Source: a virus | Strand: one strand, 5' to 3' | Length of the DNA: 64,000 bases | IMG/VR virus record: IMGVR_UViG_3300046694_000148 | Coordinates: 3,648 to 67,647 of that record | Shown: positions 27,825 to 59,865 of the stretch, in pieces | Layout: the number at the start of each line of letters is the position of its first letter | Numbering within the stretch: position 1 is the first letter of the stretch | Program-made: the position numbers and the translations under genes | Notes under the pieces: model-generated | The model's input: only the letters and a program-made list of their open reading frames with translations | Databases searched by the model: none | What the model was told of the DNA's origin: nothing

Positions 27825-28121
27825 TTACAGTTCGTCGTCGAGATTGAATGCTGCCCTCGGGCCGATCACCACCTCGGGGCAGCGGTCGGTGCGCAGCGTG
27901 TCCATCAGGTGAACCCGGCCGCCATGCAGGTGCGCCTCGACATAATTAAACACCGCGTCGAGTTGCGGAATACTGCGGGCGATCACGATCACGTCTTCAC
28001 CAGCGATGCTCATGCCCATCGCGCGCCCGGTATGCACCGGCACGCCGTTCAGGACCGACATCGCAGTCTCCAGCGGCAATTCGACGTTGCGCAGCGGCTT
28101 CTTCGTGTCGGCCATCATCAC
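27825..28121 (-). CDS. Hypothetical protein ending DDEL
   Basis: Start overlaps the upstream stop codon. Confidence 0.7.
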   Translation of the reverse strand: MMMADTKKPLRNVELPLETAMSVLNGVPVHTGRAMGMSIAGEDVIVIARSIPQLDAVFNYVEAHLHGGRVHLMDTLRTDRCPEVVIGPRAAFNLDDEL

Positions 28122-28498
28122 ACCTTTTGGCATACCGCGATCATCCATGCGAATTCGACGATGGCGCGCATGCGTTCTGCGAGCAGTCTGTCAGCGTCGT
28201 CGATGGGCGACATCGCAACGTACAGCGCGCCACTCGCCGCGTCCTTCTTCGACGAGTTCACGGCGATCTGCACGTCGGTGCCGTTGAAGCGGTAGTTCAC
28301 GTTCATCATCAGCGTAGCTTCGACCATGAATGCGTCGCACGGATCGGCCAGTGGTGCGAACACCTCGCGCTCGTCGTAATTATCGCCACCGATCCAGGGG
28401 CCGCCCATTCCCAGCGCCTTGTCGTCCCAGCGGTAGCCGGTGAGGTCACGGCCGATCAGCTTCGCCGCCGCGCGTGTCATTTCTTCGTTGCGGTTCAT
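28118..28498 (-). CDS. Hypothetical phage protein
   Basis: F.PL.D..DAF..EA.L motif; coupled overlaps at both ends. Confidence 0.75.
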   Translation of the reverse strand: MNRNEEMTRAAAKLIGRDLTGYRWDDKALGMGGPWIGGDNYDEREVFAPLADPCDAFMVEATLMMNVNYRFNGTDVQIAVNSSKKDAASGALYVAMSPIDDADRLLAERMRAIVEFAWMIAVCQKV

Positions 28499-28893
28499 TT
28501 CGCTCCCCTTGTCCTGCGGTCTGCCTTGCGGCGATCCTTACCTACGAATTCGGTGTTGCTCTTGCGGCGGTCACGCCCCGATCCGCGCTTCTCGATGAAC
28601 TTGATCTTGCTGCCGTTCTGCTGCGCCAGGAACACCGGCACGTCGAGCACTTCGCCGCCGACCTTGATGCTCGCTGCACCGTTATCCGTCATCCATTTGC
28701 GAATGTCCCGGCCGTCGTTCAGGCTGACGAACAGGATCATGGTCGATCCGTTCTTACCGCTGATGCGCGCACGCTCGATGTTCGGCTTGTAGTCTGCGGG
28801 AAGCCACTCGATTGCGATGATGTCGGAGTACCACAGAAGCGCAGGCACGCCGGTCATTGCGTCGAAGAAGGTGATGTGGGCGGCGGGGATCAT
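28495..28893 (-). CDS. Hypothetical protein with C-terminal DRR repeats
   Basis: ATGA-coupled start at 28893; ends EKRGSGRDRRK...FVGKDRRKADRR. Confidence 0.7.
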   Translation of the reverse strand: MIPAAHITFFDAMTGVPALLWYSDIIAIEWLPADYKPNIERARISGKNGSTMILFVSLNDGRDIRKWMTDNGAASIKVGGEVLDVPVFLAQQNGSKIKFIEKRGSGRDRRKSNTEFVGKDRRKADRRTRGAK

Positions 28894-29243
28894 AGCTCGT
28901 CGTCCTCGGCCAGTTTCTTGCGCAGGTCGGCTTCGATGGCGGCCAGGGGTTCGAGCAGCGAAGGGCGGATCTTGCCACGGCCGCGCACCTCTCTGAAGAC
29001 TTCCGGCATCACAGGTTCGCCGACGAACGTGAAGATCCACTCATCGCCGTTCAGGCCGTCCTCGTGCTCGATGGTCAGCTTGCCGCGTTCGACAGCGAGG
29101 ATGCCGTCAATGCCGAGTACCGGCACGCCCGCCATGAACAGCTTTTCCCTTACCGCGACGCCCGCGATAAAGAGGTTGCGGCCGGGATTCTTCGGGCCGA
29201 TCATTTCGTCGCGCGTGATCGTTACGCGAATTGTCTTGGTCAT
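28890..29243 (-). CDS. Hypothetical protein ending DDEL
   Basis: TAACGGA RBS, phage codon usage. Confidence 0.75.
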   Translation of the reverse strand: MTKTIRVTITRDEMIGPKNPGRNLFIAGVAVREKLFMAGVPVLGIDGILAVERGKLTIEHEDGLNGDEWIFTFVGEPVMPEVFREVRGRGKIRPSLLEPLAAIEADLRKKLAEDDEL

Positions 29244-29264
29244 TGTTCGTTCCGTTAAATGAGA

Positions 29265-29287
29265 ACCGGCCGCACGCGGCGACCGGC
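29265..29287 (-). terminator. Hairpin after the histone-like gene
   Basis: gccggtcgc-cgcgt-gcggccggt on the minus strand; weak U tract. Confidence 0.4.
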
Positions 29288-29296
29288 TTTGCTACT

Positions 29297-29757: not shown

Positions 29758-29985
29758 TTACAACTCATCGTCTATTCCGAGACGCTTTTCGAGGTCGGCG
29801 ATGATCTGTCGTTGGCGCTGCCTGATGCTTCGGTTTGCGGCCAGTTCGGCGCGCAGTGTGTCGTTCTGATCCTGCTGGTCGAAGAACAGGCCGCGATAGG
29901 CTTGCGCATGTTCGACCGCTGCATCGAGCGCGCGCTTCAGGCTGGCGATCTGTTCTTCCGGCGTGCGTTCGTCACAGGTCGTCAT
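29758..29985 (-). CDS. Coiled-coil protein ending DDEL
   Basis: 75 aa, heptad pattern. Confidence 0.7.
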   Translation of the reverse strand: MTTCDERTPEEQIASLKRALDAAVEHAQAYRGLFFDQQDQNDTLRAELAANRSIRQRQRQIIADLEKRLGIDDEL

Positions 29986-30265
29986 ACGCGCCTGCCTCGC
30001 GCCAGATACGCACGCCCGCCTGCTGGTAGATCTCGTCCATTTCGACGCGGCGGATCGTGATCCCCACGCCAGCGGCGAGCGCCGGGCGGCGCATGAACTC
30101 CACGTCGGCAGGCTGCACGCCAGCGATGAAGAACGAGTCGCCCGGCCGGTACGCGATGAACTTCGCCACGAGCACCTTGATCTGTTCCTGCGCGGTCCTG
30201 TCCAGCGGCATGCGCGACTTGCCGCGATTGGACGTGACCGGCGTGTCGTCAGAGGTCGTCGTCAT
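29972..30265 (-). CDS. Small protein, possibly DNA-binding, ending YDDL
   Basis: PGDSFF...GVRIWR motif; start overlaps the end of rdgC. Confidence 0.65.
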   Translation of the reverse strand: MTTTSDDTPVTSNRGKSRMPLDRTAQEQIKVLVAKFIAYRPGDSFFIAGVQPADVEFMRRPALAAGVGITIRRVEMDEIYQQAGVRIWREAGAYDDL

Positions 30266-31226
30266 CGCTCGTCTCGTCAGCGTCGGCCTGGAGCGCGTAG
30301 AGCACATTCGCCAGGATGGTGTTGAGCGTGGTGGCGTACAGCCAGTACGTCGCGTGCAGATCGTCCACGTCGTCGCCGATGCCGCTGACCGTGATGTCGG
30401 ACAGCTTGATCGCCTTGAATACCAGCTTGTCGGTCAGCGTGAACGCGGCCGTCTCTTCGTCGATCACGCGCAGGCGCAGCGCCAGTTCGGTCGCGCTGTA
30501 GCTGCCGCTGGTCGAGATCTTCTGGATCTCTTCGCTTGCCAGGTCGCGGTCCTTCACGCGGATCGCGCGCTTGTCCTCGCCCTTGAACACGGCGGCTTCA
30601 CCGGCTTCCAGCTTGGTCGAGTCTTCGTCGTCGGTGTAGACCAGGCCCTCGCGTGCGATCTGGCCCAGCAGGTAGCCCGGCGTGCTGCCGGTCGGGATCT
30701 CACCGAACTGCCAGTCAACCTTGCGGGCGTCGGCCAGGCGCGCCATCTGGACCAGCACGCGCTCGACCTGCGTGGCGCTCGACGAGCAGACCAGCACGCG
30801 ATCCTTGAACACGAGCACCGGCACGATCTTGCGCGTGATGAACGCCTTCGGCAGCAGCGAGATCTCAACGTCCTCGCGCAACTGTGCGAATTCTTTCTTG
30901 TTGAGCGCGCGGCCTTCCTTCTCGGTCAGTTCGCGGTAACGCTTGTTCACTTCCTCGTCGCGCACCGAGGCGGGCAGCTTGCGCTCGCTGAACTGGAACT
31001 TCAGCACGCGGGCCGTTCCGTCGAGATCGTGGACGTAGCTGCCTTTCTCCAGCGGCTCGATCAGGCCGAGGTTCGTCCATTCGCTTTCGCCGGGATCGCG
31101 GGCGATGAAGAGTTCGATGACCGGGGCCGTCTTGTCGGGATTGCGCGCAGCGCGCCCGCACCAATCGAATAGTGCGGCGGTGCTGGTGAAAGGCGTGAAC
31201 GCCTTAATGAGTTTCGAGACTTTCAA
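30249..31226 (-). CDS. rdgC: Recombination-associated protein RdgC
   Basis: ERKLPASV...E.EGR.L.KKE..QLREDV...LLPKAF...SSATQVE; FTLTD.L.FK.IK. Confidence 0.85.
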   Translation of the reverse strand: MKVSKLIKAFTPFTSTAALFDWCGRAARNPDKTAPVIELFIARDPGESEWTNLGLIEPLEKGSYVHDLDGTARVLKFQFSERKLPASVRDEEVNKRYRELTEKEGRALNKKEFAQLREDVEISLLPKAFITRKIVPVLVFKDRVLVCSSSATQVERVLVQMARLADARKVDWQFGEIPTGSTPGYLLGQIAREGLVYTDDEDSTKLEAGEAAVFKGEDKRAIRVKDRDLASEEIQKISTSGSYSATELALRLRVIDEETAAFTLTDKLVFKAIKLSDITVSGIGDDVDDLHATYWLYATTLNTILANVLYALQADADETSDDDDL

Positions 31227-31387
31227 AGTTCGTCATCCTCGGTTTGGGTGGTGGGGGTTTTCTTCGACACGTACTCGGTCACGAAGTCGCCCTTGCTGCG
31301 GCGCTTGTCGGCCACTTCAGGATTCAGTGTCAGGTACGGCGGCTTGTCTGCGGCCATCGGTTCGATGATCCAGGCGATGACTTTCAT
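31223..31387 (-). CDS. Small hypothetical protein ending DDEL
   Basis: GAGG RBS; overlaps neighbours at both ends. Confidence 0.65.
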   Translation of the reverse strand: MKVIAWIIEPMAADKPPYLTLNPEVADKRRSKGDFVTEYVSKKTPTTQTEDDEL

Positions 31388-31512
31388 TTCACGGTGTCCT
31401 CGTTGATCGGCCACATGCGGGCGATATAGTAATCGACTAGCAGGGCCAGGCAGATGATTGCGACGATGAACAGAACGGCGCTGATGGTGAGCGGGATCAG
31501 TTCGGCGCGCAT
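31384..31512 (-). CDS. 42-aa membrane peptide (not in ORF track)
   Basis: MRAELIPLTISAVLFIVAIICLALLVDYYIARMWPINEDTVK; fills the gap with an ATGA overlap. Confidence 0.6.
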   Translation of the reverse strand: MRAELIPLTISAVLFIVAIICLALLVDYYIARMWPINEDTVK

Positions 31513-32076: not shown

Positions 32077-32730
32077 TTACAGCGGTTCCTGGTCTTCGAG
32101 GAAGCCGCGCCACGCGATGTTCTGCGGCAGCGCGTCCGGCATGAAGTGCGCGTCTTCGGGCTTCTTGAATCCGTCTTCACGCTCGTGCTGCGGTTGCAGC
32201 GGCCAGGACCAGCGCAGGCCATCGAACCAGCGCATGTGCGTCTTCTCGGCTTCGACGAGCGTGCTGAGAAGTTTGCACTGGTAGGGGCCAGGAACAACGG
32301 GGTCTTGTCCGCTGATCCAGTCCGTCATCTTACTCGCGTCTTGTGTCGCACCTGCGAGATCGGTTTTCACATCGTTCATGTTCATCTTCATCCTCTTCTT
32401 TTTACGTCGTTCAACGCCGCCGAAGAAACTCAGCGGCAGGTCGTTGTACTGCCTTCCCGAAAAGCGCGTCACGATGGGCGGGCCGTACTTGTAGACAGCC
32501 GGGGAATTGCGTCCCTGCGACTGCGCTTTGATTGCGGTGTGGATCTCACCCTTCACCAGCAAATGCTGCACGAAGCGGTTGGCCGTTTGCAGGCTTGCCG
32601 GGATCATGTCAGCGATGTCCTGTTGCGTCGCGCCGTGAAGCGGTCGCCCCATGAGGAACGCCAGGATCTTCTCGATGGTTTCGAGCGACGCGGGCGAGTC
32701 GTAGTTCAGGACTTGCTTCTTGTCGCTCAT
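32077..32730 (-). CDS. Winged-HTH-like protein fused to a second domain (possible internal start near 32390)
   Basis: ATQQDIADMIPASLQTANRFVQHL...GEIH HTH; internal AGAGG-ATG. Confidence 0.6.
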   Translation of the reverse strand: MSDKKQVLNYDSPASLETIEKILAFLMGRPLHGATQQDIADMIPASLQTANRFVQHLLVKGEIHTAIKAQSQGRNSPAVYKYGPPIVTRFSGRQYNDLPLSFFGGVERRKKKRMKMNMNDVKTDLAGATQDASKMTDWISGQDPVVPGPYQCKLLSTLVEAEKTHMRWFDGLRWSWPLQPQHEREDGFKKPEDAHFMPDALPQNIAWRGFLEDQEPL

Positions 32731-32732
32731 GG

Positions 32733-33410
32733 CTAGGCCCCTGAATGATCCGAGCCGCGCCGCTTGCACATCGGCCGTTCGGGATCGTTCATGTCCCATC
32801 GCAGATCGCACTTCTCGCACGTCATCTGATCGCTGTGCTGCACGGCCAGGCACTTCGTCGGCTCGCGGCGCTTCGACTTGAAGGTGCGCACGTAGTCGCG
32901 GTGCAGCATCTTCGACCCTTCAACGAGGAAGCCCCACGGCCCGAGGTAGCGGCCGAACACGAAGAACGTCAGCGCCTCGCCGCCGTGCAGCCTCGTGATC
33001 TTGTGGAACTGGTCGTGGCCCAGTGCCGCACTGTCGCCCGGCAGGTAGTGTTGCTCGACCATCTGACGTTCGGTCCACCAGGGATCGAGTGCGTTCACGA
33101 TGGTCACGCTGCGCACTTCGTCGTAGCCGCCGCGCATGATCCACGTACGCGCTTTGAACGGATGGTCGTGCAGGTGACGATCAGGATCAGGCATGACGAT
33201 GTGGTGGATGCGGATCGAGAACGGGATCATGCGGTACTTGCGCTTGTAGGTCCTCGGGTCGATCTGGTTGAACAGCCAGTAGCGATACATGTAGACCTGG
33301 CTTCCGTCCGGCGACATGATGTGCGCGTCGGGCGTGCGCTTTGCGATTGCGAGTAGGCGTTCACGGATAGCGGGCTTGCGCAGCACGCGGCCGATGATGT
33401 TTGCGATCAT
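32733..33410 (-). CDS. Cupin-fold protein with C-terminal Cys cluster
   Basis: RIHHI..PD.DRHLHDHP...GGYDE...FHKI; C-terminal C...QHSDQM.CEKC. Confidence 0.65.
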   Translation of the reverse strand: MIANIIGRVLRKPAIRERLLAIAKRTPDAHIMSPDGSQVYMYRYWLFNQIDPRTYKRKYRMIPFSIRIHHIVMPDPDRHLHDHPFKARTWIMRGGYDEVRSVTIVNALDPWWTERQMVEQHYLPGDSAALGHDQFHKITRLHGGEALTFFVFGRYLGPWGFLVEGSKMLHRDYVRTFKSKRREPTKCLAVQHSDQMTCEKCDLRWDMNDPERPMCKRRGSDHSGA

Positions 33411-48461: not shown

Positions 48462-48480
48462 AAACGGAGAAACGTGAAAA

Positions 48481-51048
48481 TCAGAGTTCGTCGTCATCAT
48501 CGGCGAGTTTTTTCGCCGCGTCGATGTATTTTCGCACTTTCGCATTGTCGATGGTGATGCTGCCGTCGCCGAACGTGGACTGGAACCGCTCGACATCGCG
48601 GGTGTAGTAGGTCCGGTAGTCGCTGCCGACGCGGATCTTACCCAGGCTCTCGAAACGGTGGCGGGACAGCATCGAACCGACCGCTTTATTCGCCGGAACG
48701 TCCAGGCCCCGGTCCATCAGCACTTCGGCCAGGCGGCCACTGTCCAGCAACTCGAACGAAATCAGCGGATCGGCCTGTTCCGAGATCAGGTCGTGCAGAT
48801 CTTGGATGAACTGCGGCTGCGCCTGGCGGATCATGTACTTCTTCGCGTCGGTGTTCGGCGCGTCGCCGTACGGCTTGAACGATTCATCCTGTTCCCACTC
48901 CAGCAGCCATTTCCGCAGAGCCGGTGCCGACGACGCGATGGTCCCGTACAGATCCTCGTAGTAGTCGGGGTTCTCGTCCTTGAATTCGTCGAGTTTGTCC
49001 TTCCGCTGCCACTGGCTGAACAGCACGCAGTATCGGCGGCCGTCGTCGTCCAGCGGCAGCGCGTCGCGGAAGTTCGAGAACAGCAGGTAGGACGTGGTGT
49101 TCACCGCGTTGTACTGCGACTTGCCTTTCGGGTGGACCTCGATCACGTCGTTCGTGATGTAGGGCTTGATCCGGTTCAGCAGTTCGTACTTGTTGTTCGC
49201 GTTGATGAGGCGGACTTCTTCGATACAGGTGAGGCACTGGCCGACAACCCAGTCGGTGAACGACGATTCGAGAATGTGGGCGTTGAGCATCTGGACGTTC
49301 GACACGCCCATGACCGACCGCATCAGGAAAGCGAAGAACGACTTGCCGTCACCCTCGACGCCTTGCAGCAGGATCGACCAGTTGACGTGACGGCCGGGGT
49401 TCTGCACTACCCACGACAGCCAGTCGAGCAGGATGCGGCGTTCTTCCGGCTTCACGAGCAGGTGGCGAATATGGTTCTTCACGCGCTTGATGGCCGCTTT
49501 ATCGCGGGGCAGCATCGCGTCCGGCAGTTCGGGGATCTCGTGCGCCGCATACGTGTTGGCGAAGATGCCGTCAGCGCGATAGAACACCGGATCGGCACCA
49601 GGCTCATACCGGCGACCGTTCACGACCTTGATCTTGTACTTGTTCAGCGCCAGGGTCGAGGCCGAGTTCGACGGCGAGGTCTTGCCGTCCAAGATGTCCT
49701 TCTTCGTCATTGCGTAGCGGTCGAACATCGCATCGAAGCCCTGCTTCGTGGTCGAGATATTGCGCGAGGTGTCGAAGAAGCGGTCGTCGCTCGTGTCGTA
49801 GACCCAGTTCTCGCACCAGCCTGGAATCTTTTCGCCCTTCGACGGCGCGTATGCGATGGCTTTCTTCACTTCCGACAGCGGCGTCTTCGATCCGCCGTTG
49901 ATGATGTCGAGGCGTTCCTTCGCCAGCGAGGCCAGCGCCGACCGCGTGAGGCCGTCGATCTCCGCTTCGCGTGCAGCATCGCGGGCCTTGTTCCAGGCCG
50001 CCAGGTCTTTCGCTTCGCTGAACTGGTCGCGCAGTTTCACCGCCAGCGCAGCAGCGCCTTCGGCCGCAGCCTCTTTCGACAGCTTCAGGATGAAGCGGGC
50101 CGTGATCGGTGCGCGCTTCTTGCCGTCGATACCGAAATCATCCCAGCGACGTTCGAGCGCATCGCGGTCGAAGTTGTCGGCCGTCTCGGACCACTCGGAC
50201 CACAGTTCAAGGCCATCCTCGCCGCCGTCGTACTGGTGATACAGGGCCATGCCGACCTGAACCCAGGTGTCGTAGTCGTCAGGGTTCGGCACCATCATCA
50301 GGCGCGAGCGCAATTCCGTCTCGCTGATGTCCACGGCCTGCGTGTCTTCGATGAACGGATCGTCCATGTCGATGTCGGCCAGGTTGCCGCTGCGCTGCTT
50401 CTTCACCACCTTCCAGTCGGATTCCTGTTCGGCGCGCTCGTGGAACCAGTCGATGAGTTCCTGACATTGCTCGACCGTGATGATCGTGAGTTCGTTCGCC
50501 GGGATGGTCAGCGGACCACCGGCCTCGATCACCTCGAAGTCTTTTCCGACCTTCTCGGACGGCCACATGTACGGCCTGCCGGTGTCGGGGTGAATGTGAT
50601 ACGCGACGAACTGCTGGCCGTCGCAAAGGATCTCGATCTGGTGCAGTTCGCCCCACTCGTCCTGATAGCGGTTCGAGCGCATTTTGCGGAACGGCGTTTC
50701 GGTGCGATAGACGAGCAGGCGCTTCGGCGGCATACCGATTCGCAGCGGTGCGTCACCGAAGATCTTGCGCGCTTTTTCTTCCGCTTCGAGTGCGACCTTT
50801 TCGTCACGAATGTCGAGGTCAACTGCGGGCGTACGCTTGGTCAGAATTCCGACGCCAGAATTGCGGTGCCCCGACTCGATCCATTCGGCGAGTTGCGGCT
50901 TGTTCGAGCGGGCCTTGCTCCAGTTGTCGAAGCCTGGCGCTTTCTTCCCGACCGCGATGGGCACGATCTCGTAAGCGTTGTCGATGAGACGTGATCCCAG
51001 GTAGGCCAGCGGCCCACTATTTTTGGACGTATATTCTTCGTTCTTCAT
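48481..51048 (-). CDS. Prim-Pol primase / PriCT-2 / SF3 helicase fusion
   Basis: VPI..GKKAP, GVGILT...AVDLD, YDTWVQVGMAL...W..WS (PriCT-2), Walker A GVEGDGKS, Walker B CIEE. Confidence 0.9.
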   Translation of the reverse strand: MKNEEYTSKNSGPLAYLGSRLIDNAYEIVPIAVGKKAPGFDNWSKARSNKPQLAEWIESGHRNSGVGILTKRTPAVDLDIRDEKVALEAEEKARKIFGDAPLRIGMPPKRLLVYRTETPFRKMRSNRYQDEWGELHQIEILCDGQQFVAYHIHPDTGRPYMWPSEKVGKDFEVIEAGGPLTIPANELTIITVEQCQELIDWFHERAEQESDWKVVKKQRSGNLADIDMDDPFIEDTQAVDISETELRSRLMMVPNPDDYDTWVQVGMALYHQYDGGEDGLELWSEWSETADNFDRDALERRWDDFGIDGKKRAPITARFILKLSKEAAAEGAAALAVKLRDQFSEAKDLAAWNKARDAAREAEIDGLTRSALASLAKERLDIINGGSKTPLSEVKKAIAYAPSKGEKIPGWCENWVYDTSDDRFFDTSRNISTTKQGFDAMFDRYAMTKKDILDGKTSPSNSASTLALNKYKIKVVNGRRYEPGADPVFYRADGIFANTYAAHEIPELPDAMLPRDKAAIKRVKNHIRHLLVKPEERRILLDWLSWVVQNPGRHVNWSILLQGVEGDGKSFFAFLMRSVMGVSNVQMLNAHILESSFTDWVVGQCLTCIEEVRLINANNKYELLNRIKPYITNDVIEVHPKGKSQYNAVNTTSYLLFSNFRDALPLDDDGRRYCVLFSQWQRKDKLDEFKDENPDYYEDLYGTIASSAPALRKWLLEWEQDESFKPYGDAPNTDAKKYMIRQAQPQFIQDLHDLISEQADPLISFELLDSGRLAEVLMDRGLDVPANKAVGSMLSRHRFESLGKIRVGSDYRTYYTRDVERFQSTFGDGSITIDNAKVRKYIDAAKKLADDDDEL

Positions 51049-51344
51049 TGGGTCAGTTCGTGAATTTCGAGCGGGAACATAAGCCACTCGCGTCGTACGA
51101 CGTTTCGACCGCAAACCTTCTCGATCTTCGACGCCATCGTCGGCGACAGCTTGCCTTCCCTGATTGATGCGTGTACCTGCGAGCGGTCGATCTTGCAGGC
51201 GTCAGCGAGTGCCGCGATGCTGCCGTTTGGCGTGCTGCTGATCGCGGCCTTCAATACAAGGTAACGCACGCGCCTGGATTCGAGCGTGCCGTCATCATTG
51301 TTAGCCTTCGGTCCTTCGACCCACGGCGGAAAAATTACTTGCAA
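51045..51344 (-). CDS. Cro/CI-like HTH regulator
   Basis: TTG start with AGGAGA RBS; SIAALADACKIDRSQVHASIREG.LS..MA.KIE. Confidence 0.7.
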   Translation of the reverse strand: MQVIFPPWVEGPKANNDDGTLESRRVRYLVLKAAISSTPNGSIAALADACKIDRSQVHASIREGKLSPTMASKIEKVCGRNVVRREWLMFPLEIHELTQ

Positions 51345-51856: not shown

Positions 51857-51939
51857 TTTTGCAAAATGCGTTGTTCGATTTTGGCGGTAGAACAGCGCAC
51901 AATTTAACCGCCGATTTTTCTATTAACGGAGCTTCAAAA

Positions 51940-52323
51940 ATGCTGGAAAAACTGATTCAAGACCTGATCGCTGCCCTGAACGCCAACACCGCCGCACACA
52001 TGGGCAACGGTGGCGCTGCTTCGACCGACAAACCGGCCGCATCGACCGACAAGCCTGCCGGTGGCAAAGCCGCTGGTGGCAAAGCCGCCCCGAAGGCGAA
52101 GGAAGAACCGGCAGGCCCGACCGTCGAAGAAATGCAGGCTGCACTCGGCCAGGTGAAGGAGAAGTTCGGCGCGGCAGAAGCCAAAGCGATCATCAAGTCC
52201 TTCGGTAAAGTCGAGAAGATGGGCGAGATCCCGGCCGACAAGGTGAAGGCCGTGTTCGACGCCGCGACCGCGAAGCTGGCCCCGGCCGACACCACCGCCA
52301 CCGACGACGACGACGACATCTAA
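51940..52323 (+). CDS. Small replication-module protein preceding DUF2800
   Basis: LE..IQ.L.AAL..NT N-terminus, Ala/Lys/Pro linker, helical C-domain, ends DDDDDI. Confidence 0.8.
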   Translation: MLEKLIQDLIAALNANTAAHMGNGGAASTDKPAASTDKPAGGKAAGGKAAPKAKEEPAGPTVEEMQAALGQVKEKFGAAEAKAIIKSFGKVEKMGEIPADKVKAVFDAATAKLAPADTTATDDDDDI

Positions 52324-52329: not shown

Positions 52330-53622
52330 GTGACCGAGCACCGCATCAGCGTCGCGCAGATGCGTGACGCGATCAGGATGGTCGAGGAAGGCGGTCACTC
52401 CGTCTTCTCGCCATCCGGCTCGAAGATGTGGCTCGGTTGCGCGGGATCGCTGATCCCAAACCTGTTCGCGCCGGATGATTCTGGCGAGGACGCGGCCTAC
52501 GGAACCGTCGCCCACATGGTCGGCGAAACGTGGCTAACAGATGGGAAGCGTCCGAAGCACCTACTCGGCAAAACGTACTGGGTTGACGGCGAGGGCTTCG
52601 GGTTCTTCATCACCGTGGATGAGGTGATGATGGACTTCGTGAAACGGTATGTGGACTGGTGCAAGAACCTGCCAGGCGAGCATTTCGTTGAGACGCGCGT
52701 GGACTTCTCGCAGCTTACCCCGATCCCGAACCAGGGCGGCACCGCCGATCACTGCGCATGCACCTTTCAGCGCATGGTCATCACCGACCTGAAGATGGGC
52801 AAAGGGGTGCGGGTCTACGCGAAGGAAAATTCACAGGCATTGCTGTACGCCCTCGGATTCTTCTTCGCATGGGACTGGCTGTATGACTTCCGCGAGATCG
52901 TGATTCGGATCGCGCAGCCGCGCCTCGACGTGTTCGAGGAATGGGTCGTAGATCGAGAGTACCTGCTGGCGTTTGCAGAGTACGTGCGTGAACGCGCAGC
53001 GGCAGCATGGGTGCAGAACGCACCTCGCACGCCGAGCGCAGAATCGTGCCAGTGGTGCCGCGTCCAATCGACGTGCGCCGCGAAGGCGAAGGTGGTGCTG
53101 GATCTGACCGGGGGCGCGTTCGACGACCTCGAAAAGCCAGTCACCGAGGCAGACATGCTGTACTTCAAAGAGGTGCTGCATGACACCGATTCGCCGGACG
53201 TGTTGGCAGCGGCAACGCTGACGACGTATGAGTTAGAAAAGCTGTATGACTGGCGCGGCACGGTCGAGAAGTTCTTCAAGTCGGTGTGCGAAGAACTCGA
53301 ACGCCGGGCACGCCTCGGTGAGAAGCTGAAGCTGCAAAAACTCGTGGAAGGCCGCTCGTTCAGGGTGTTCCGCAACAAGGAAAAGGCCGTCGAAGCATTG
53401 GTCGGCCTGGGCCTCGAAAGGGGTGATCTCGTGAAAGAGGAAATGGCATCCCCGGCCGAGGTTGAGAGGTTGCTTACAGCAGCAGGCCACAAGCGCAAGG
53501 ACATTCCCGATCTGCTGAACGATCTGGTTTTCCGACCGCCTGGCAAAGCAACCCTGGCGTCCGTTCGTGACAGTAGGCCAGCATTGGCCGACAAGTACGA
53601 CGACGCTTTTAGCGACGTGTGA
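52330..53622 (+). CDS. DUF2800 Cas4-like PD-(D/E)xK exonuclease
   Basis: HS.FSPS...W..C.GS, GTVAH, GGTAD, DLKMGKG, N.Q.LLYALG, C.WC...C. Confidence 0.88.
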   Translation: MTEHRISVAQMRDAIRMVEEGGHSVFSPSGSKMWLGCAGSLIPNLFAPDDSGEDAAYGTVAHMVGETWLTDGKRPKHLLGKTYWVDGEGFGFFITVDEVMMDFVKRYVDWCKNLPGEHFVETRVDFSQLTPIPNQGGTADHCACTFQRMVITDLKMGKGVRVYAKENSQALLYALGFFFAWDWLYDFREIVIRIAQPRLDVFEEWVVDREYLLAFAEYVRERAAAAWVQNAPRTPSAESCQWCRVQSTCAAKAKVVLDLTGGAFDDLEKPVTEADMLYFKEVLHDTDSPDVLAAATLTTYELEKLYDWRGTVEKFFKSVCEELERRARLGEKLKLQKLVEGRSFRVFRNKEKAVEALVGLGLERGDLVKEEMASPAEVERLLTAAGHKRKDIPDLLNDLVFRPPGKATLASVRDSRPALADKYDDAFSDV

Positions 53623-53677
53623 CGAGTAGATCGTTAAACCGTTTTTATCGTGAAGTCCTTTTTTGGGAAAATCTGAA

Positions 53678-54319
53678 ATGAGTGCATTGGTTGTTAAAAA
53701 ACGCGGCAAGAACTTCGTGCTGTACGAGAACGGCATGATCCGTGTCGATAACGTCCGCTTCTCCTATCCCCACGTCGATAAGCCGTGGAAGAAAGAGAGC
53801 GACAAGGGCGTGGCAAAGTACGGCCTGGTCGGCCTGCTGCCGAAGGAGACGCACGAAGAAGCGAAGTCCGTGATTGCACAAGAAATCAAGCGCGTCCTGA
53901 CTGAAGCCAAACTCACCGTACCGACCGACAAGAAATTCTTGCGCGACGGTGACGCGAACGTCGATCCTGATGATCCCGACGCAGGCGAGAACTCTTACCG
54001 TGGTCACTGGTTCCTCAGTGCCCGCGAGACGAACCGCCCGACCTTGCGCGACAAGTCCGGCCGCAAGCTGGACCCGGTGGAAGACCTGCAAACCATCAAT
54101 GAGCTTTTCTATGGTGGCGCATGGGGCCACATGCTGATTCGTCCGTGGGTTCAGAACAACGAGCACGGCAAGCGCATCAATGCTGGCCTGGTCGGCGCGA
54201 TGTTCGCCAAAGACGACAAGGCGTTCGGCCAGGGTCGTGTCGATGACTCCGATGCGTGGGATGACCACGCTTCCGGTGACACTGGCGGCAGCAGCAACGA
54301 TGACGACGACGACCTGTAA
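53678..54319 (+). CDS. DUF2815 single-stranded DNA-binding protein
   Basis: VRFSYPH, LRDGD, FYGG.W, N..GKR.NAGL, D..FG, acidic tail. Confidence 0.88.
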   Translation: MSALVVKKRGKNFVLYENGMIRVDNVRFSYPHVDKPWKKESDKGVAKYGLVGLLPKETHEEAKSVIAQEIKRVLTEAKLTVPTDKKFLRDGDANVDPDDPDAGENSYRGHWFLSARETNRPTLRDKSGRKLDPVEDLQTINELFYGGAWGHMLIRPWVQNNEHGKRINAGLVGAMFAKDDKAFGQGRVDDSDAWDDHASGDTGGSSNDDDDDL

Positions 54320-54388: not shown

Positions 54389-56557
54389 ATGCCAATCTCC
54401 ACAAAAACATTCCTCGAAAAGCGGCCTGAAGCCGGGAGCGATACCGAGTGCTACCGCGATTACTGGAGCATCGGCTTCATCAATCTGGACACCGGCAAGA
54501 AGGTCATCATCGAAAAATACGATGGCCTCGAACTCGACCGCCCGAAGATCGCGCGCATCATGCGCAAGTTCCGCCTGTACACGTTCAACGGCATCGGCTA
54601 CGACATTCCGATGATCTGCCTGGCGATGGCCGGGGCCAGCAACGAACTGCTGAAGAAGGCCAGCGACGACATCATCGTCAACCGCCTGCGGCCGTACCAG
54701 TTCTTCGAGAAGTACGGCGTCGAGCCGCCCGAATGGCTGGACCACATCGACCTGTATGACGTAGCGCCAGGCGTCAAGCTGTCCCTGAAGAAGTACGGCG
54801 CACGCATGAACATGAAGCGCCTGCAAGAACTCCCCATCGACCCGAGCGAACCTGTCGGCGTGGCCCGCCGTCCGCTGATGCGCCGCTACCTCGGCAACGA
54901 TCTTGAGACGACCCGCGAACTGGCCCTGAACCTGCGCGAAGAGATCGACATTCGCAACGAGATCAGCGCGGAATACGGCATCGACGTGCGCTCGAAGTCC
55001 GACGCGCAGATCGCCGAAACGCTAATCAAGGCTGAGGTCGAGCGCGTCACCGGCCGCAAGGTCGAGAAGCCGGTGGTCACGACGTTCGAGTTCAAGTACG
55101 AGCCACCACCGTTCATCAAGTTCAATACCCCGCTGCTGCAAAACGTGCTGAAGGTCGTGACCTCGGTGCGCTTCAAAGTGAGCGGCGAGAAGGACCTGCC
55201 GGGCGCGAAGAAAAAGAACTACGGCGTGGTGCGCCTGCCGCAAGAGATCAGCGACATTAAGCTGCGCATCGGCTTCACCGACTACAAGATGGGCATCGGC
55301 GGCCTGCACTCGAAAGAGAAGCGCCGCTCGTTCCGCGCCGACGAAGACACGATCATCGAAGACCGCGACGTGCGCGCCTACTACCCGCGCCTGATGCTCG
55401 CGTGCGGTTACGTCCCGGCCGCGCTGGGCCAGAACTTCCTGGGCGTGTTCTCCAAGTTCGTCAACCTGCGCGACAGCTACAAGGAGAAGGCCGCCGCGCT
55501 GAAGAAGGCTGGCGAAATGGGCCAGTCGATCAAGTACAAGAAGCGTTCCGACTCCTTCAAGATTGTTAATAACGGCACCTACGGAAAGACCGGCTCACCG
55601 TACGCCGTCGTCTACGCGCCGAAGCTGATGATCTCCACCACGATCACCGGGCAGTTGTCGCTGCTGATGCTGATCGAGGAACTGGAAGCCAACAGGTTCG
55701 CGGTGATCTCGGCGAACACTGACGGTATCGTGACCGTGATCCCGCGCGACCGCTACTGGCTGTTCAACGCCATCGTGTTCGAGTGGGAATGTGCGACCTC
55801 GTTCCAGACGGAAGCCGTGCGCTACCTGGGCGTGTTCTCGCGCGACGTGAACAGCTACATGGCCCTGGTCGAAGACGCGAAGGTGCCGGGCAAGGTCGCT
55901 GAGGTGAAGCGCAAGGGCCTGTTCGCAAAGGCTGGCCTGCAAGCGAAGCACGATCCGACCTTCGACATTTGCTCGACCGCCGTGGTCGAATACCTGACGA
56001 ACGGCGCTGACATCGAAGACACGATCATGCGGTGCGACGACATCACGCAGTTCATCGGCGTCAAGCAGGTGGGCAACGTGAAAGTCGGCGACAAGATGGT
56101 CGGCGGCGGCTACGACTCGCATGGCAACTACCTCGGCAAAATGGTGCGCTGGTACTACGCCGAGGGTGAGCGCGGATTCATTGCGAAGGCCAACGGCTCG
56201 CGCGTCGCGGGCACTACTGGCGCTTCTCCGGTCATGGATCTGCCTGACGACTTCCCCGACGACATCGACTACGCCTGGTACGTGCGCGAGGCGTATGCGC
56301 GCCTGGACGACATCGGCCTCGACGTGCGCAACCCGCGCCTGAACGGTCGTCAGGGCTACAAGCTGGGCGTGCTGCCGAAGATGAAGACGGTCCACATCAT
56401 CGACCTGCAAAGCATGACGGCGCTGTGCGGCCGGGCCGAGAAGAACGTGCGCGAGCCGTGGGAAGAACTGAAGTTCTTGCCGGACGACATGCGCGTGTGC
56501 AAGACCTGCCGGGAAGAACGCGGCCTGCCTGAAGAGGAAGACGATGAGGACGAGTAA
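54389..56557 (+). CDS. DNA polymerase with family-B-type motifs, 3'-5' exonuclease and C-terminal zinc module
   Basis: Exo DTE and FNGIGYD; DVRAYYP, K...NGTYG, NTDG. Confidence 0.9.
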   Translation: MPISTKTFLEKRPEAGSDTECYRDYWSIGFINLDTGKKVIIEKYDGLELDRPKIARIMRKFRLYTFNGIGYDIPMICLAMAGASNELLKKASDDIIVNRLRPYQFFEKYGVEPPEWLDHIDLYDVAPGVKLSLKKYGARMNMKRLQELPIDPSEPVGVARRPLMRRYLGNDLETTRELALNLREEIDIRNEISAEYGIDVRSKSDAQIAETLIKAEVERVTGRKVEKPVVTTFEFKYEPPPFIKFNTPLLQNVLKVVTSVRFKVSGEKDLPGAKKKNYGVVRLPQEISDIKLRIGFTDYKMGIGGLHSKEKRRSFRADEDTIIEDRDVRAYYPRLMLACGYVPAALGQNFLGVFSKFVNLRDSYKEKAAALKKAGEMGQSIKYKKRSDSFKIVNNGTYGKTGSPYAVVYAPKLMISTTITGQLSLLMLIEELEANRFAVISANTDGIVTVIPRDRYWLFNAIVFEWECATSFQTEAVRYLGVFSRDVNSYMALVEDAKVPGKVAEVKRKGLFAKAGLQAKHDPTFDICSTAVVEYLTNGADIEDTIMRCDDITQFIGVKQVGNVKVGDKMVGGGYDSHGNYLGKMVRWYYAEGERGFIAKANGSRVAGTTGASPVMDLPDDFPDDIDYAWYVREAYARLDDIGLDVRNPRLNGRQGYKLGVLPKMKTVHIIDLQSMTALCGRAEKNVREPWEELKFLPDDMRVCKTCREERGLPEEEDDEDE

Positions 56558-56834: not shown

Positions 56835-58615
56835 TGCGCGAGTCGCACGCCCTGAAGGCGATTGTCGAAGGCATACGCGCGAAGTTCTACGACGTGGAAC
56901 TGACACGCGAGCAGTTGCACGAGTATCAGCGCATCGGCTACAACTTCCTGAAGGAGAATCCATTCTCCGCGCTGTTCATCGACATGGGCCTGGGCAAAAC
57001 GGTCACGTCGCTGACGCTGATCGCCGACCTGCTGGCCGAGTTCGCCGACGACAACAAGGTGCTGGTGATCGGGCCGCTGAAGGTGGCGACCCGTACCTGG
57101 CCGGACGAGATCAGGAAGTGGAAACACCTGGCGCATTTGAATCATTCGGTCATCCACGTCGATGAGGACGACCCGCGCATCAAAGAGGCGTACAAGGCCG
57201 CATATCGCTACGAGAAGGCGCACAGCAGCGAGCAGTTCCCATCGAAGCGCGAGAAGGAAGCCATTCAGCACGCGACCCGCGTGGCCGCACAGAAGCGCGA
57301 GGAACTGCGCATCGCCGCAACGCTCAATTCGGCCTCGGTCCACATGATTAGCCGCGACTGGATCGACTGGCTCGTCACGTACTACCGAGTAGCGAAGAAG
57401 CCCTGGCCGTATCGCACCATCATCATCGACGAATCGAGCGGCTTCAAGGACCACAACTCGGGGCGCTTCAAGGCGCTCCAGATGCTCGTCGATAACGGCA
57501 AGGTGGATCGCCTGCACCTGCTGACGGCGACGCCCGCCACCGAGGGCTACATGGGCCTCTTCCCGCAGATCTACCTGCTGGACCGTGGCAAGCGTCTCGG
57601 CCGCAACGTGACCTCCTACCGCGAACGCTATTTCACCGAGGACCGATACACCCGCAAATGGAAGCTGCGGCCCGACGCCGAAAAAGAGATCCTGGCGAAG
57701 ATCACCGACATCTGCCTGGTGATGAAGGAAGAGGATTATCTGCCGAAGGTGCCGCCGCTGTTCGTGAACCGCAACGTGTTCATGACGCCCGAGCAGCGCA
57801 CCCTGTACCTGACGATGGAAAAGGACATGGTAGTGACGCTCGACGACGGCACAGAGGTCCAGGCCGAGACGGCTGCGGCGCTGTCGGCGAAGCTGCTGCA
57901 AATGGCATCCGGCGTGCTGTACGACACGAAGCTGGAGCCAGGACAAACCGAGGAAGACGATCACGTCAAGATCACCAAGATCCACAAGATCCACGAGCAC
58001 AAGATCGAAGAGTTGAAGCAGATCGTGGAAGAGGCGCAGGGCAAGCCGATCCTCGTCGGCTATCACCACCGTTCGTCAAGGGATCGACTGCTGAAGGCTT
58101 TCCCGCAAGCGGTCAAGATGGACAAGGACGGCAAGAACATCAAGAAGTGGAACCAGGGGAAGATACCGATCCTGCTGATGCACCCGCAGTCGGGCGGGCA
58201 CGGCCTGAACCTGCAAGCCGGTGGTCACATCATCGTATTCTTCGACATACCGTGGTCGCTCGAACTCTACCTTCAGTTCATCGGTCGCCTGGCGCGCCAG
58301 GGCCAGAAGCACCGCGTCACGGTCTTCCTGCTGGTCTGCAAGGACACGCTCGACGAAACCGTGGTCAAGGCCCTGACGGCGAAAGAGGACGCGCAGGACC
58401 AGCTATTCAAGATCCTGAAACGCATGCGTCATCGCCTGCGGTCGCTGCTAAAGGGGCGCAAGATCAAGGCCGACGATCCCGAGTGGGACAAGGTGGTCGA
58501 TGTGCTGACCGGCTTCGCGGATCTCGACGACGACATGGTGTCGAAGGGTGTAACGATTGGCGATGGCCTGCGCGACGAAGAACTCGTGGCCGCCATCGAC
58601 GACGACGAACTTTGA
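56831..58615 (+). CDS. SNF2-like SF2 helicase
   Basis: LHEYQ, DMGLGKT, IIDES, TATP, GHGLNLQ, Q.IGRL.RQGQ. Confidence 0.92.
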   Translation: MMRESHALKAIVEGIRAKFYDVELTREQLHEYQRIGYNFLKENPFSALFIDMGLGKTVTSLTLIADLLAEFADDNKVLVIGPLKVATRTWPDEIRKWKHLAHLNHSVIHVDEDDPRIKEAYKAAYRYEKAHSSEQFPSKREKEAIQHATRVAAQKREELRIAATLNSASVHMISRDWIDWLVTYYRVAKKPWPYRTIIIDESSGFKDHNSGRFKALQMLVDNGKVDRLHLLTATPATEGYMGLFPQIYLLDRGKRLGRNVTSYRERYFTEDRYTRKWKLRPDAEKEILAKITDICLVMKEEDYLPKVPPLFVNRNVFMTPEQRTLYLTMEKDMVVTLDDGTEVQAETAAALSAKLLQMASGVLYDTKLEPGQTEEDDHVKITKIHKIHEHKIEELKQIVEEAQGKPILVGYHHRSSRDRLLKAFPQAVKMDKDGKNIKKWNQGKIPILLMHPQSGGHGLNLQAGGHIIVFFDIPWSLELYLQFIGRLARQGQKHRVTVFLLVCKDTLDETVVKALTAKEDAQDQLFKILKRMRHRLRSLLKGRKIKADDPEWDKVVDVLTGFADLDDDMVSKGVTIGDGLRDEELVAAIDDDEL

Positions 58616-58625
58616 AAGGAGCAGT

Positions 58626-58988
58626 ATGGCGGTGTACGTGGACGATATGCGAGCGAAGTACGGCAGGATGGTCATGTGCCACATGCTCGCCGATAGCGAT
58701 GAAGAACTACACGCGATGGCCGACAAGATCGGCGTCGCGCGGCGCTGGTGGCAATCGCCGCAGAAGACCAGCGGCAGTCACTACGACATCGCGTTGAGCA
58801 AGCGCGCTGTTGCGGTAGCTGCCGGTGCCGTCGAAATCACCTGGCGACAGGCTGGCTCGATGAACACGCGGCGACGTGTGACCGGAAGCCTCGGCGATCC
58901 CGCCGACGCCGAAGCCTGGCTTTCCGACTACCTGGCAAAGCGCCGCGCCGAGAAGGCCGCGCGAGAAGCAGAGGACGACGAACTTTGA
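58626..58988 (+). CDS. DUF4031 protein
   Basis: MAVYVDD...CHMLAD..EELHAMA..IG..RRW.Q...HYD. Confidence 0.85.
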   Translation: MAVYVDDMRAKYGRMVMCHMLADSDEELHAMADKIGVARRWWQSPQKTSGSHYDIALSKRAVAVAAGAVEITWRQAGSMNTRRRVTGSLGDPADAEAWLSDYLAKRRAEKAAREAEDDEL

Positions 58989-59051
58989 ATTCGTTCTGAC
59001 GTTTCCTGCAAGCATGTAAGATGCCGACCTATTCAATGGATAGGTCGGTAA

Positions 59052-59288
59052 ATGGATAAACAGTATAAATTGTTAGCGGACTTCGAGGCCCTGGTCGGCC
59101 TCAAGCCTGCGCAGGCGTGCCAGTTGCTCGGCATCGCCTATTCCACCTACGCGGCGTATCGCAACTGCGGTCGCCCGCTCCAGCCGTATCACCACAATCA
59201 CATCGCCGACATTTCGCTCATTGCGAAGCTGTCCTCGCGCGCACTCAAAAAACTTATCGACGAGCGAATCAATGGTCAAACGAACTGA
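59052..59288 (+). CDS. Small HTH protein
   Basis: GL..AQACQLLGIAYSTY..YR. Confidence 0.7.
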   Translation: MDKQYKLLADFEALVGLKPAQACQLLGIAYSTYAAYRNCGRPLQPYHHNHIADISLIAKLSSRALKKLIDERINGQTN

Positions 59289-59865
59289 ACTAACCGATGA
59301 CACTACGCGCGCCATCCTGTACGACGGCGCGAACCTGTCGCAGCTTGGTCAACTGTTCAGGATGGACCACCGCAGCATCGTTGCGAAGATCCACACCTGC
59401 AAGCCGATTGGCACGCGCAACGGTGCGGACATCTACGCGGTACACGAGGTTGCACCATTCCTCGTGAAGCCCGCGTACGACATCGAGACGTACATCAAGA
59501 AGATGCACCACAACGACCTGCCGAAGATGCTCACCAAAGAGTTTTGGGCAGGCCAGCGGTCGCGCCAGGAATTCGAGCAGCGCGAGGGCAACCTGTGGCC
59601 GACAGATCGCGTCGTCAGCGTCATCGGCGAGATCATGAAGCTGGTGAAGATGAGCATTCGCTTGAACGCCGACGCGGTGGACCGCCAGGCCGAACTGAGC
59701 GACCGCCAGCGCGGCATCGTGAAGGCCCTCGGCGACGGCCTGCTGGAGACGCTGTATGCAACGGTGATCGAGAAGTTCGCCGAGAAGCCGACGAACCTGG
59801 CCGTGCAGGAACGCGCCGAGCAGGTGGTCACTGAATTGAAGGACGAGGAAGACGATGAACTTTAA
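59272..59865 (+). CDS. terS: Terminase small subunit (DUF1441-like)
   Basis: N-terminal HTH, DLP..L.KEFW.GQ; overlaps TerL. Confidence 0.8.
   Translation: MVKRTELTDDTTRAILYDGANLSQLGQLFRMDHRSIVAKIHTCKPIGTRNGADIYAVHEVAPFLVKPAYDIETYIKKMHHNDLPKMLTKEFWAGQRSRQEFEQREGNLWPTDRVVSVIGEIMKLVKMSIRLNADAVDRQAELSDRQRGIVKALGDGLLETLYATVIEKFAEKPTNLAVQERAEQVVTELKDEEDDEL

Follow-up and report, generated by a model that had tools for sequence, protein, structure and literature searches.

Why should a dozen proteins of one phage, among them a primase-helicase, an SNF2-family helicase and a terminase subunit, end in nearly the same four residues? The source phage possesses a 67.6-kb Casjensviridae-like genome (G000), for which our own gene call yielded 79 proteins; this home-made procedure is based on codon log-odds, so that the count for any one genome could err by a few proteins. 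Inside the window, the whole 64,000-nt stretch of this genome that was analysed, the original prediction listed twelve non-virion proteins with an acidic C-terminal tag. All twelve termini were found at the given stops, while some of the given starts differ from those of the longest ORFs (e.g., 58626 instead of 58557 and 59272 instead of 59221). The list itself turned out to be incomplete, as a head-module protein encoded just outside the window is also tagged. In total, 13 of the 79 proteins end in two to five Asp/Glu residues followed by Leu or Ile (12 inside the window, one just outside), and the carriers lie in two co-located gene blocks. The carriers, together with three further proteins discussed below, are as follows:

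27825..28148, minus strand: 107-aa protein without Pfam, PHROG or NCBIfam match, ends NLDDEL
28890..29243, minus strand: 117-aa protein without Pfam, PHROG or NCBIfam match, ends AEDDEL
29758..29985, minus strand: 75-aa protein without Pfam, PHROG or NCBIfam match, ends GIDDEL
29972..30307, minus strand: phrog_7200 protein (PHROG match), ends AYDDL
30249..31226, minus strand: RdgC-family protein (PF04381, E 3.7e-27; phrog_724), ends SDDDDL
31223..31414, minus strand: 63-aa protein without Pfam, PHROG or NCBIfam match, ends TEDDEL
32077..32853, minus strand: 258-aa protein, variant end EDQEPL
48481..51114, minus strand: primase-helicase (domain matches to Prim-Pol, PriCT_2 and DUF5906), ends DDDDEL
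51859..52323, plus strand: replication-module protein phrog_7721 (PHROG match), ends DDDDDI
52330..53622, plus strand: DUF2800 / PD-(D/E)XK exonuclease (domain matches), degenerate end DDAFSDV
53663..54319, plus strand: gp2.5-type (DUF2815 / Enc34 ORF6) ssDNA-binding protein (SSB; PF10991, phrog_112), ends DDDDDL
54389..56557, plus strand: DNA polymerase phrog_1252 (PHROG match), ends EEEDDEDE, without a hydrophobic last residue
56831..58615, plus strand: SNF2-family helicase (domain match), ends IDDDEL
58557..58988, plus strand: DUF4031 protein (PF13223), ends AEDDEL
59221..59865, plus strand: terminase small subunit TerS (family matches to phrog_141 and DUF1441), ends EEDDEL
G000:C1:3038-3331, just outside the window, next gene after that of the major head protein: 97-aa protein in the gene-order position of phage lambda gpFI, ends AAADDL

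The tag is an extreme C-terminal short linear motif, composed of two to five Asp/Glu residues and one aliphatic residue with a free carboxylate; a variable, flexible linker precedes it in most carriers. Its enrichment is real and far beyond chance. DDEL ends 8 of the 79 called proteins against a shuffle mean of 0.001 and occurs in none of 20,662 internal windows. Ends of the form [DE]3[LI] number 11/79, with 0.02–0.03 expected and a maximum of 2 in 2000 shuffles; for [DE]2[LIVMF] the figures are 13/79 observed and 0.30–0.37 expected. The tags use the Leu codons CTG (five times), CTT (four), CTC (two), CTA and TTG and the stops TAA or TGA, and the sequence downstream of them differs among carriers. 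Since the codons differ, the signal lies at the protein level and is not a DNA repeat, in agreement with the earlier claim.

Termini not conserved among orthologues had been named in advance as a result that would speak against a functional tag. We compared 21 related genomes (10 IMG/VR relatives and 11 named phages) and found the tag retained in orthologues, including those at 30–50% protein identity, while the preceding residues vary. Four orthologues of the 107-aa protein end in TLDEEL, TFDDEL, IYDDEL and TFDDEL, and all five of the 117-aa protein end in D[DE]EL, with differing sequences in the 25 residues before the tag. The 75-aa protein keeps GIDDEL in two relatives (G007 and G010) and has GIDQEL in a third (G004); orthologues of the 63-aa protein end in EEDDEL and DEEEEL. 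The phrog_7200 protein, for which a PDB profile search returned no match below E 0.1, has eight orthologues ending in [YF]D[DE]L and a homologue in phage SS2019XI ending in EYDDL; its homologues in JS26 and Chi-like phages are untagged. The RdgC tail is retained in 14/14 homologues found, with a DDEV end in Chi-like phages.

The SSB matches PF10991 (E 1.3e-20), phrog_112 (E 2.1e-38) and, by profile, PDB 5odj (Enc34 ORF6, E 1.9e-65); it is thus a member of the gp2.5 family. The likeness of the tag to the acidic C-terminal docking motifs of SSB and gp2.5 of T7, drawn in the original prediction, is supported. A hydrophobic last residue follows the acidic run in 87/87 full-length SSB homologues (Leu in 56, Ile in 25, Phe in 3), acidic residues occupy positions −2 to −5 in 82–89% of them, and the linker before the tag of the SSB is a flexible Gly/Ser/Asp stretch. 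Of the 120 best primase-helicase homologues, 114 are tagged, 111 end in Leu and 55 in DDEL; in these two sets high information content is found only in the last 4–6 residues. The phrog_7721 protein has homologues in 12 genomes, where Ile, Leu or Met closes an acidic run, and a protein-atlas search with it returned just unnamed viral clusters with scores below 0.9. The tail of the DUF2800 exonuclease is degenerate in the clade of the source phage and tagged in most other genera (FDDLEGEDDL in SS2019XI, FDDLDADEL in FoX4, VFDDL in AH2, DDLTADDGL in Nazgul, DDDDEV in Chi-like phages). The SNF2 helicase ends in DEL in 9/9 orthologues of close relatives, despite two different C-terminal extensions; its homologues in SS2019XI, AH2, R22L, Carli and Salvo are untagged. 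TerS retains its tail in relatives with a lineage-specific end, and 90 of 150 representatives of its family carry a tag, as do 28 of the 30 nearest ones among them. The DUF4031 protein behaves differently: the tag is present on 2 of its 120 best homologues, a set with named Burkholderiales chromosomal proteins in it, and the 21 phage genomes compared yielded no homologue. Its gene is host-like, was acquired by capture and has gained the tag.

Within a genome, the last two residues of the tag switch together. The source phage uses DEL, and other genomes DDL, DEL/DEM, DDI, DEV (the Chi-like form) or xGL (the Nazgul/AH2 form). Asp is penultimate in 11/11 tails of SS2019XI and Glu in 11/12 of phiAxp-2; Val is last in 10/12 tails of BP12C and Ile in 6/10 of R22L. 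Pairs of tails from one genome with identical last two residues number 71. In 20,000 permutations the mean was 26.6 and the highest value 56, so that no permutation equalled the real count; a test on a sparser genome set agreed. This concerted change, together with the tag gain by the DUF4031 protein, lends indirect support to the common address postulated in the original prediction; the hub or compartment attached there to this address is hypothetical.

The tag is not special to the source phage but occurs across Casjensviridae and other phages with a gp2.5-like SSB module. In low-GC loci with the SSB/exonuclease/primase module 33 of 276 genes are tagged, versus 4 of 366 in loci sharing the polymerase alone; it is thus the SSB module, and not the polymerase, that the tag accompanies. 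Nor does the tag type follow host taxonomy: EL is found in JS26 (Serratia), DEV in Chi-like phages (Salmonella, Providencia), GL in AH2 and Nazgul (Burkholderia) and DEL in phiAxp-2 (Achromobacter). Among the called genes inside the window, those for tail, portal, TerL and lysis proteins and those at 41–47 kb bear no tag, as had been stated; beyond the window this does not hold throughout, as the FoX4 portal homologue is tagged. In Salvo just 2 of 58 proteins are tagged and Nazgul has only the weakly acidic xGL form; therefore, the tag system is dispensable or replaceable. Judging by the entries listed, a literature search outside subscription journals gave no earlier account of acidic C-terminal tags in Casjensviridae, of phage DDEL ends or of such tags on DUF2815/DUF2800 proteins.

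Phage T7 offers the closest precedent for comparison, with such tails on exactly two of its 56 CDS products, gp2.5 (..DEDGDF) and gp4 (..NDTDF). Both tails are reported to bind basic patches of the T7 polymerase and to compete for the same patches (PMC12339929; bioRxiv 10.64898/2026.05.20.726333). The source phage shares with T7 an acidic run and one hydrophobic residue at a free C-terminus after a flexible segment, as well as its presence on the SSB (gp2.5 / DUF2815 family, DDDDDL) and the primase-helicase (DDDDEL). The last residue, however, is Phe in gp2.5 and gp4, Leu or Ile in the source phage and Val in some relatives, and there are 13 carriers in the source phage versus 2 in T7, including packaging proteins, RdgC, SNF2, DUF4031 and proteins without an assigned family. 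Moreover, the polymerase is unlike that of T7 and differs between members of the family, and the primase-helicase has a PrimPol/PriCT_2/DUF5906 architecture, which is not known from gp4.

Bacterial SSB also carries an acidic-then-hydrophobic docking peptide at its free C-terminus, the tip DDDIPF on a disordered linker. There the logic is reversed, as one tail serves many pockets, whereas here one tail sits on many proteins; the source-phage tag also lacks Pro-Phe, and the SSB belongs to another family (PF10991). The C-terminal four-residue motifs [KH]DEL (ER retrieval), PDZ class III and TPR EEVD are likewise read via the free carboxylate; this is a likeness of form alone, and the bacterial host has no ER. 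Closer to the carriers themselves, the Enc34 ORF6 protein is described as resembling gp2.5, and in its crystal the tail occupies a sheet groove of a neighbouring molecule (PMC5686142). The TerS of phage PaP3 is described as having an acidic disordered C-terminal tail without an assigned role, while the C-terminal tail of P22 TerS binds TerL and DNA (PMC7672466). A flexible C-terminal tail is what the source-phage TerS has in common with both, PaP3 being compared by description; it differs in its family (DUF1441 / phrog_141), and that report mentions no motif shared with replication proteins.

On balance, and by analogy with T7, we are inclined to think that a dozen proteins of the source phage bear an acidic docking tail of the T7 type, for which they share one reading site or a few, probably phage-encoded. 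The tag would be the same kind of device as the tails of gp2.5 and gp4 (the former docks also on its own DNA-binding cleft). With the gp2.5-type SSB and the primase-helicase as its first carriers, this device has probably been extended to around a dozen proteins acting on phage DNA. Putative recipients are RdgC, the SNF2 helicase, the DUF2800 exonuclease in most genera, TerS, the gpFI-position protein, the captured DUF4031 protein and several small proteins. We infer that a single site, or a small set of sites, probably of phage origin, serves every one of these tails, and that the carriers would be brought to, or be rivals for, a common partner on DNA undergoing replication and packaging. Candidate receptors are the SSB cleft or whichever site reads the SSB tail; a comparison of the last SSB residue (Leu or Ile) with core columns for covariation comprised just 5–7 independent pairs. 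Phages of this family have one or the other of two unrelated polymerases (BLASTP detects no relationship between phrog_1252 and the PolA-like polymerase of SS2019XI), and the tag type follows neither, which makes the polymerase, the receptor in T7, an improbable sole receptor here.

Several observations count against this reading, among them the two polymerase types and the state of the tags in Salvo and Nazgul described above. The polymerase of the source phage itself ends in an acidic run. In the AF2 monomer model of the SSB, the tail is not confidently placed (pLDDT 49–71 over the last ~33 residues) and is not docked in its own cleft, although such a monomer says nothing for or against binding of the tail to the polymerase or the cleft. 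According to the alignment, the tag of the phrog_7200 protein directly follows the conserved folded region, without a linker. The very widely tagged TerS tails could serve a separate contact with TerL or DNA, as in P22.

The tails might instead act in cis, as acidic DNA mimics that fold back on the DNA-binding surface of their own protein and tune its affinity or specificity without any shared receptor. All carriers of known function bind DNA (SSB, primase-helicase, RdgC, SNF2, TerS), and Enc34 ORF6 deprived of its tail is reported to gain dsDNA binding (PMC5686142). Nevertheless, action in cis would give no reason for the joint switch of the last two residues in 7–12 unrelated proteins per lineage, nor for the strictly aliphatic last residue; the AF2 model leaves the SSB tail undocked, and the captured, enzyme-like DUF4031 protein gained the tag as well. 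We therefore regard it as unlikely. Mimicry of the host SSB C-terminus, with hijacking of the host readers of that tail or competition for them, was part of the original prediction and now appears less likely still. Both have the general layout of an acidic run with a hydrophobic end, and true host-type ends do exist in relatives, confined to the SSB homologue P0074 (DEDIPF) and a 137-aa protein of R22L (DDLDDDIPF). The tags of the source phage, however, end in DEL or DDL and not in IPF, an end found on no G000 protein in the gene list, and tag types differ between phages of related hosts while being common to phages of different hosts.

Free C-termini govern proteolysis in bacteria, and the arrangement of the carriers in two co-located gene blocks would suit a degron or anti-degron by which a host or phage protease co-regulates their half-lives. 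However, known C-terminal degrons are non-polar (as ssrA LAA) or basic and not acidic, whereas in 13/13 carriers an acidic run precedes the last residue; nor would a host protease account for tag types that are independent of host taxonomy. A stability signal of this kind is, in our view, quite improbable. Finally, the proteome is rich in Asp (6.9%), which might suggest that the pattern merely follows from composition, from a DNA repeat or from a signal for the downstream gene, such as a Shine–Dalgarno sequence. This origin is refuted and its probability negligible: codons and downstream sequences vary, internal DDEL does not occur, just 2 of 491 uncalled (shadow) ORFs of at least 40 aa match the tag pattern, and the tag persists at the protein identities given above.

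Returning to the shared docking tail, we tentatively propose a stricter form of it, in which [DE]n and a final aliphatic residue with its free carboxylate form an address code private to these phages; it would wire a dozen replication, recombination, packaging and accessory proteins to one phage-encoded reader. Code and reader would co-evolve as a unit (DEL, DDL, DDI, DEV, xGL) and for this reason be orthogonal to the host SSB-IPF system, and captured genes could join by acquiring four residues. Its holders might be the Casjensviridae and other phages built on the gp2.5-type SSB / DUF2800 / PrimPol-helicase module. If such a code exists, the small, sequence-diverse tagged proteins beside rdgC would be accessory factors for the replisome or packaging complex.

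Recruitment of a dozen proteins by one four-residue address would amount to a simple, testable wiring rule for the DNA factory of this phage family, physically linking replication, recombination and packaging and extending the two-tail paradigm of T7 to a many-tail system. It would explain how a captured host gene was plugged into the network and provide a sequence rule for spotting accessory proteins among ORFs without an assigned function. The lineage variants (L, V, I, GL) would then lend themselves to swap experiments with naturally occurring ends and might serve phage engineering as orthogonal tags.

Over the last four codons, comparison of the source phage with each orthologue shows the same codon in 188 cases, a synonymous one in 52 and a change of amino acid in 68; in the printed tails that we inspected, and without a tally, these changes are often D/E swaps. 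The variant end of the 258-aa protein is also retained, with five orthologues ending in EDQEPL, DDQEPL, EDQDEL, EDPDPL and EDQDPL.

The phage encodes proteins sharing a C-terminal tag, an acidic run closed by an aliphatic residue. Eight of them end in DDEL and four in the close variants YDDL, DDDDL (RdgC), DDDDDI and DDDDDL (SSB); the polymerase ends in EEEDDEDE. All of these termini, reported in the original prediction, were found in place, and the observation is extended here by a thirteenth carrier and by an EDQEPL variant. The proteins concerned are the following (window coordinates unless another locus is named).

27825, 28890, 29758, 29972, 31223, 51859 (ORF positions): tagged proteins without a match to any family of known function
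30249-31226 (-): RdgC, tagged
32077-32853 (-): protein ending in EDQEPL, a variant end kept in orthologues
48481-51114 (-): primase-helicase of PrimPol/PriCT_2/DUF5906 type, tagged
52330-53622 (+): DUF2800 exonuclease
53663-54319 (+): SSB of DUF2815/Enc34 ORF6/gp2.5 type (PF10991, phrog_112; PDB 5odj, E 1.9e-65), tagged
54389-56557 (+): polymerase, phrog_1252, with weak family-B-like matches
56831-58615 (+): SNF2 helicase, tagged
58557/58626-58988 (+): DUF4031 protein, tagged
59221/59272-59865 (+): TerS, tagged
G000:C1:3038-3331 (L147:3038-3331), just left of the window: thirteenth carrier, 97 aa, ending in AAADDL

The tag is enriched far above chance. DDEL terminates 8 of 79 proteins and occurs in none of 20,662 internal windows; [DE]3[LI] ends number 11 of 79 (0.02-0.03 expected) and [DE]2[LIVMF] ends 13 of 79 (0.30-0.37 expected), and only 2/491 uncalled ORFs of at least 40 aa match the pattern. 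The terminal Leu is encoded by CTG (five times), CTT (four), CTC (two), CTA and TTG, the stop codon is TAA or TGA, and the sequence 3′ of it varies. Set beside these figures, an origin by chance or as a DNA-level artefact is hardly conceivable. An uncalled 53-aa ORF at 45459-45620 (-), in the early region otherwise devoid of the tag, ends in LFDEL; given the 2/491 background, this could be a chance match.

The window covers bases 3648-67647 of an IMG/VR virus record that is 67,647 bp long, has a G+C content of 62% and carries direct terminal repeats of 127 bp. Protein similarity places it with Casjensviridae. Its primase-helicase shares 52.6% identity with that of Pseudomonas phage vB_Pae-SS2019XI and 39-44% with the counterparts in phiAxp-2, FoX4, AH2, BcepNazgul and JS26. 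Because of the high G+C content, genes were called by a codon log-odds score trained on long ORFs, yielding 76-79 genes. The comparison set comprised ten IMG/VR relatives and eleven named phages, homologues being best BLASTP matches per genome, one-way and not reciprocal. Nine of the IMG/VR relatives hold the polymerase gene (57-84% identity); only G010 gave no polymerase match.

Homologues of the primase-helicase, SSB, RdgC, TerS, SNF2, the proteins at 51859, 29972, 27825 and 28890, and the thirteenth carrier retain the tag, although the preceding 10-30 residues vary in sequence and length. All 87 full-length SSB homologues have a hydrophobic last residue after the acidic run (L 56, I 25, F 3), and the tag is present on 114 of 120 homologues of the primase (last residue L in 111, DDEL end in 55); in both families high information content is restricted to the last 4-6 positions. 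Over the last four codons, comparison with orthologues gave 188 identities, 52 synonymous and 68 amino-acid differences, the latter often D/E swaps among the tails inspected, without a tally. Such conservation marks the tag as a short linear motif located at the free C-terminus.

The form of the tag differs between genomes and is largely uniform within each.

Tagged genes per genome (loose rule: two or more acidic residues among positions -5 to -2, with the final residue hydrophobic); counts depend on a home-made gene caller and may err by a few
Window phage: 14/79; L 13, I 1
SS2019XI: 11/73; penultimate D in 11/11 (DDL)
phiAxp-2: 12/73; penultimate E in 11 (DEL, DEM)
FoX4: 12/60; mostly EL (10 L, 1 M, 1 I)
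JS26: 11/80; mostly EL (L 11; penultimate E 8)
R22L: 10/66; I 6 (DDI)
BP12C: 12/72; V 10 (DEV)
PatoteraRojo: 12/70; V 7, I 5
AH2: 7/67; several xGL forms
Nazgul: 3/57; xGL forms
Salvo: 2/58; almost none

Most AH2 and Nazgul tails escape this loose rule because their TerS, SSB, primase, exonuclease and SNF2 homologues carry only weakly acidic xGL ends. There were 71 within-genome tail pairs with identical last two residues, a number never attained in 20,000 permutations that shuffled genome labels within each of eight orthogroups from eleven genomes (null mean 26.6, maximum 56). The result also held for the last one or three residues and for a sparser nine-genome set. A quick tree of SSB cores shows this residue to be clade-bound in that protein, with about 12 changes of the last position against a shuffled mean of 27.5. 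Since the tails lie in different genes, a lineage-wide switch needs parallel substitutions in many of them, as co-evolution with a shared reader would predict.

Tags are also gained and lost. DUF4031 lacks a homologue in the remaining 21 phage genomes. Of its 120 best homologues, some of them named Burkholderiales chromosomal proteins, only two are tagged (its own sequence and one other); the tag was thus added to a captured gene. The closest homologues of this gene (58626-58988), at 68-89% identity, are, where named, Burkholderiales chromosomal proteins, which hints at the host clade and a recent capture. SNF2 is tagged in the window phage's clade, phiAxp-2, FoX4, Nazgul and JS26 and untagged in SS2019XI, AH2, R22L, Carli and Salvo. 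The exonuclease has a degenerate end in the window phage's clade and a tag in most genera; TerS is tagged in 90 of 150 cluster representatives (28/30 nearest versus 9/30 farthest).

Two unrelated polymerase types occupy the same replication-module slot within Casjensviridae: BLASTP gives no similarity between the window polymerase (54389-56557) and the PolA-like enzyme of SS2019XI (L101:757-2805). The phrog_1252 type occurs in the window phage's clade, phiAxp-2, FoX4, AH2 and JS26, and the PolA-like type in SS2019XI, Nazgul, R22L, Carli, Salvo and Chi-like phages. Among the genomes compared, tag type follows neither polymerase type nor host taxonomy. IMG/VR loci sharing only the window-type polymerase have 4/366 genes tagged, versus 33/276 in low-GC loci that also hold a gp2.5-type SSB, DUF2800 exonuclease and primase-helicase; in the latter, primase, SSB, VRR-NUC and exonuclease end in an acidic run plus F, Y or L, uniform within a locus. 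On these distributions, the reader of the tag is more likely phage-encoded and linked to the SSB module rather than to the phrog_1252 polymerase.

In T7, the same rule picks exactly 2 of 56 annotated CDS, gp2.5 (..DEDGDF) and gp4 (..NDTDF). Both tails are reported to attach to basic patches on the T7 polymerase, where gp2.5 is in competition with gp4 (PMC12339929; bioRxiv 10.64898/2026.05.20.726333). We consider it fairly probable that the tag is a docking tail of this kind, carried, unlike in T7, by some dozen proteins of DNA transactions and recognised at one or a few common sites; the motif and its evolution are observed directly, and binding, a shared receptor and what that receptor is are inferred. 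The tag is a variant of the T7-type acidic tail that is family-wide, sharply defined and directly testable. The original prediction had proposed recruitment to a common hub: concerted evolution and tag gain on a captured gene lend this idea partial support, but no hub was found. A literature search outside subscription journals returned no description of one tag common to many proteins of a phage.

In Enc34 ORF6, the unstructured acidic C-terminus occupies a neighbouring molecule's sheet groove in the crystal, and its removal alters DNA specificity (PMC5686142); the AF2 model of the window SSB shows a predicted flexible tail with no docked pose (core mean pLDDT 87.6, last ~33 residues 49-71). 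Among TerS proteins, that of PaP3 is reported to have an acidic disordered tail of unknown role, and that of P22 a tail that binds TerL and DNA (PMC7672466). As alternative explanations, cis-acting DNA-mimic tails are unlikely, mimicry of the host SSB tip is a poor candidate, host taxonomy not being followed by tag type, and a stability signal, under which the tails would govern protein lifetime, seems poorer still. A 137-aa protein of Erythrobacter phage R22L (loci L130-L132; 42028-42441, -) ends in DDLDDDIPF and the SSB homologue P0074 in DEDIPF, both resembling the bacterial SSB tip, and some relatives may also use the host SSB code.

The thirteenth carrier has no PHROG match and lies immediately 3′ of the gene for the major head protein, where the lambda gene order has gpFI, a non-virion packaging helper. 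The head module follows lambda order (TerS, TerL, gpW-like adaptor, portal, protease, decoration protein, major head protein), and after the carrier come a gpFII-position protein, a neck protein and the tail terminator. In 11 genomes the homologue of the carrier bears the lineage-typical tag after a long low-complexity linker. In Xanthomonas phage FoX4 (L116-L119) a virion protein is tagged, the portal homologue (15241-16938) ending in EDEDEL.

In phiAxp-2 (L112-L115), seven consecutive minus-strand genes up to rdgC (47302-51153) are all tagged; the small ones have no BLASTP match at E 1e-4 among the window phage's proteins, and the rdgC surroundings may be a cassette of diverse tagged accessory proteins. 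Common to the exonuclease (52330-53622), the SSB (53663-54319) and their homologues is another motif, upstream of the tag: a small residue, F/W and DD (AWDD, AFDD, VFDDL). The AH2 exonuclease ends exactly at FDDL, and certain tails resemble tandem DD[LI] units, such as DDLDDL and DIDI.
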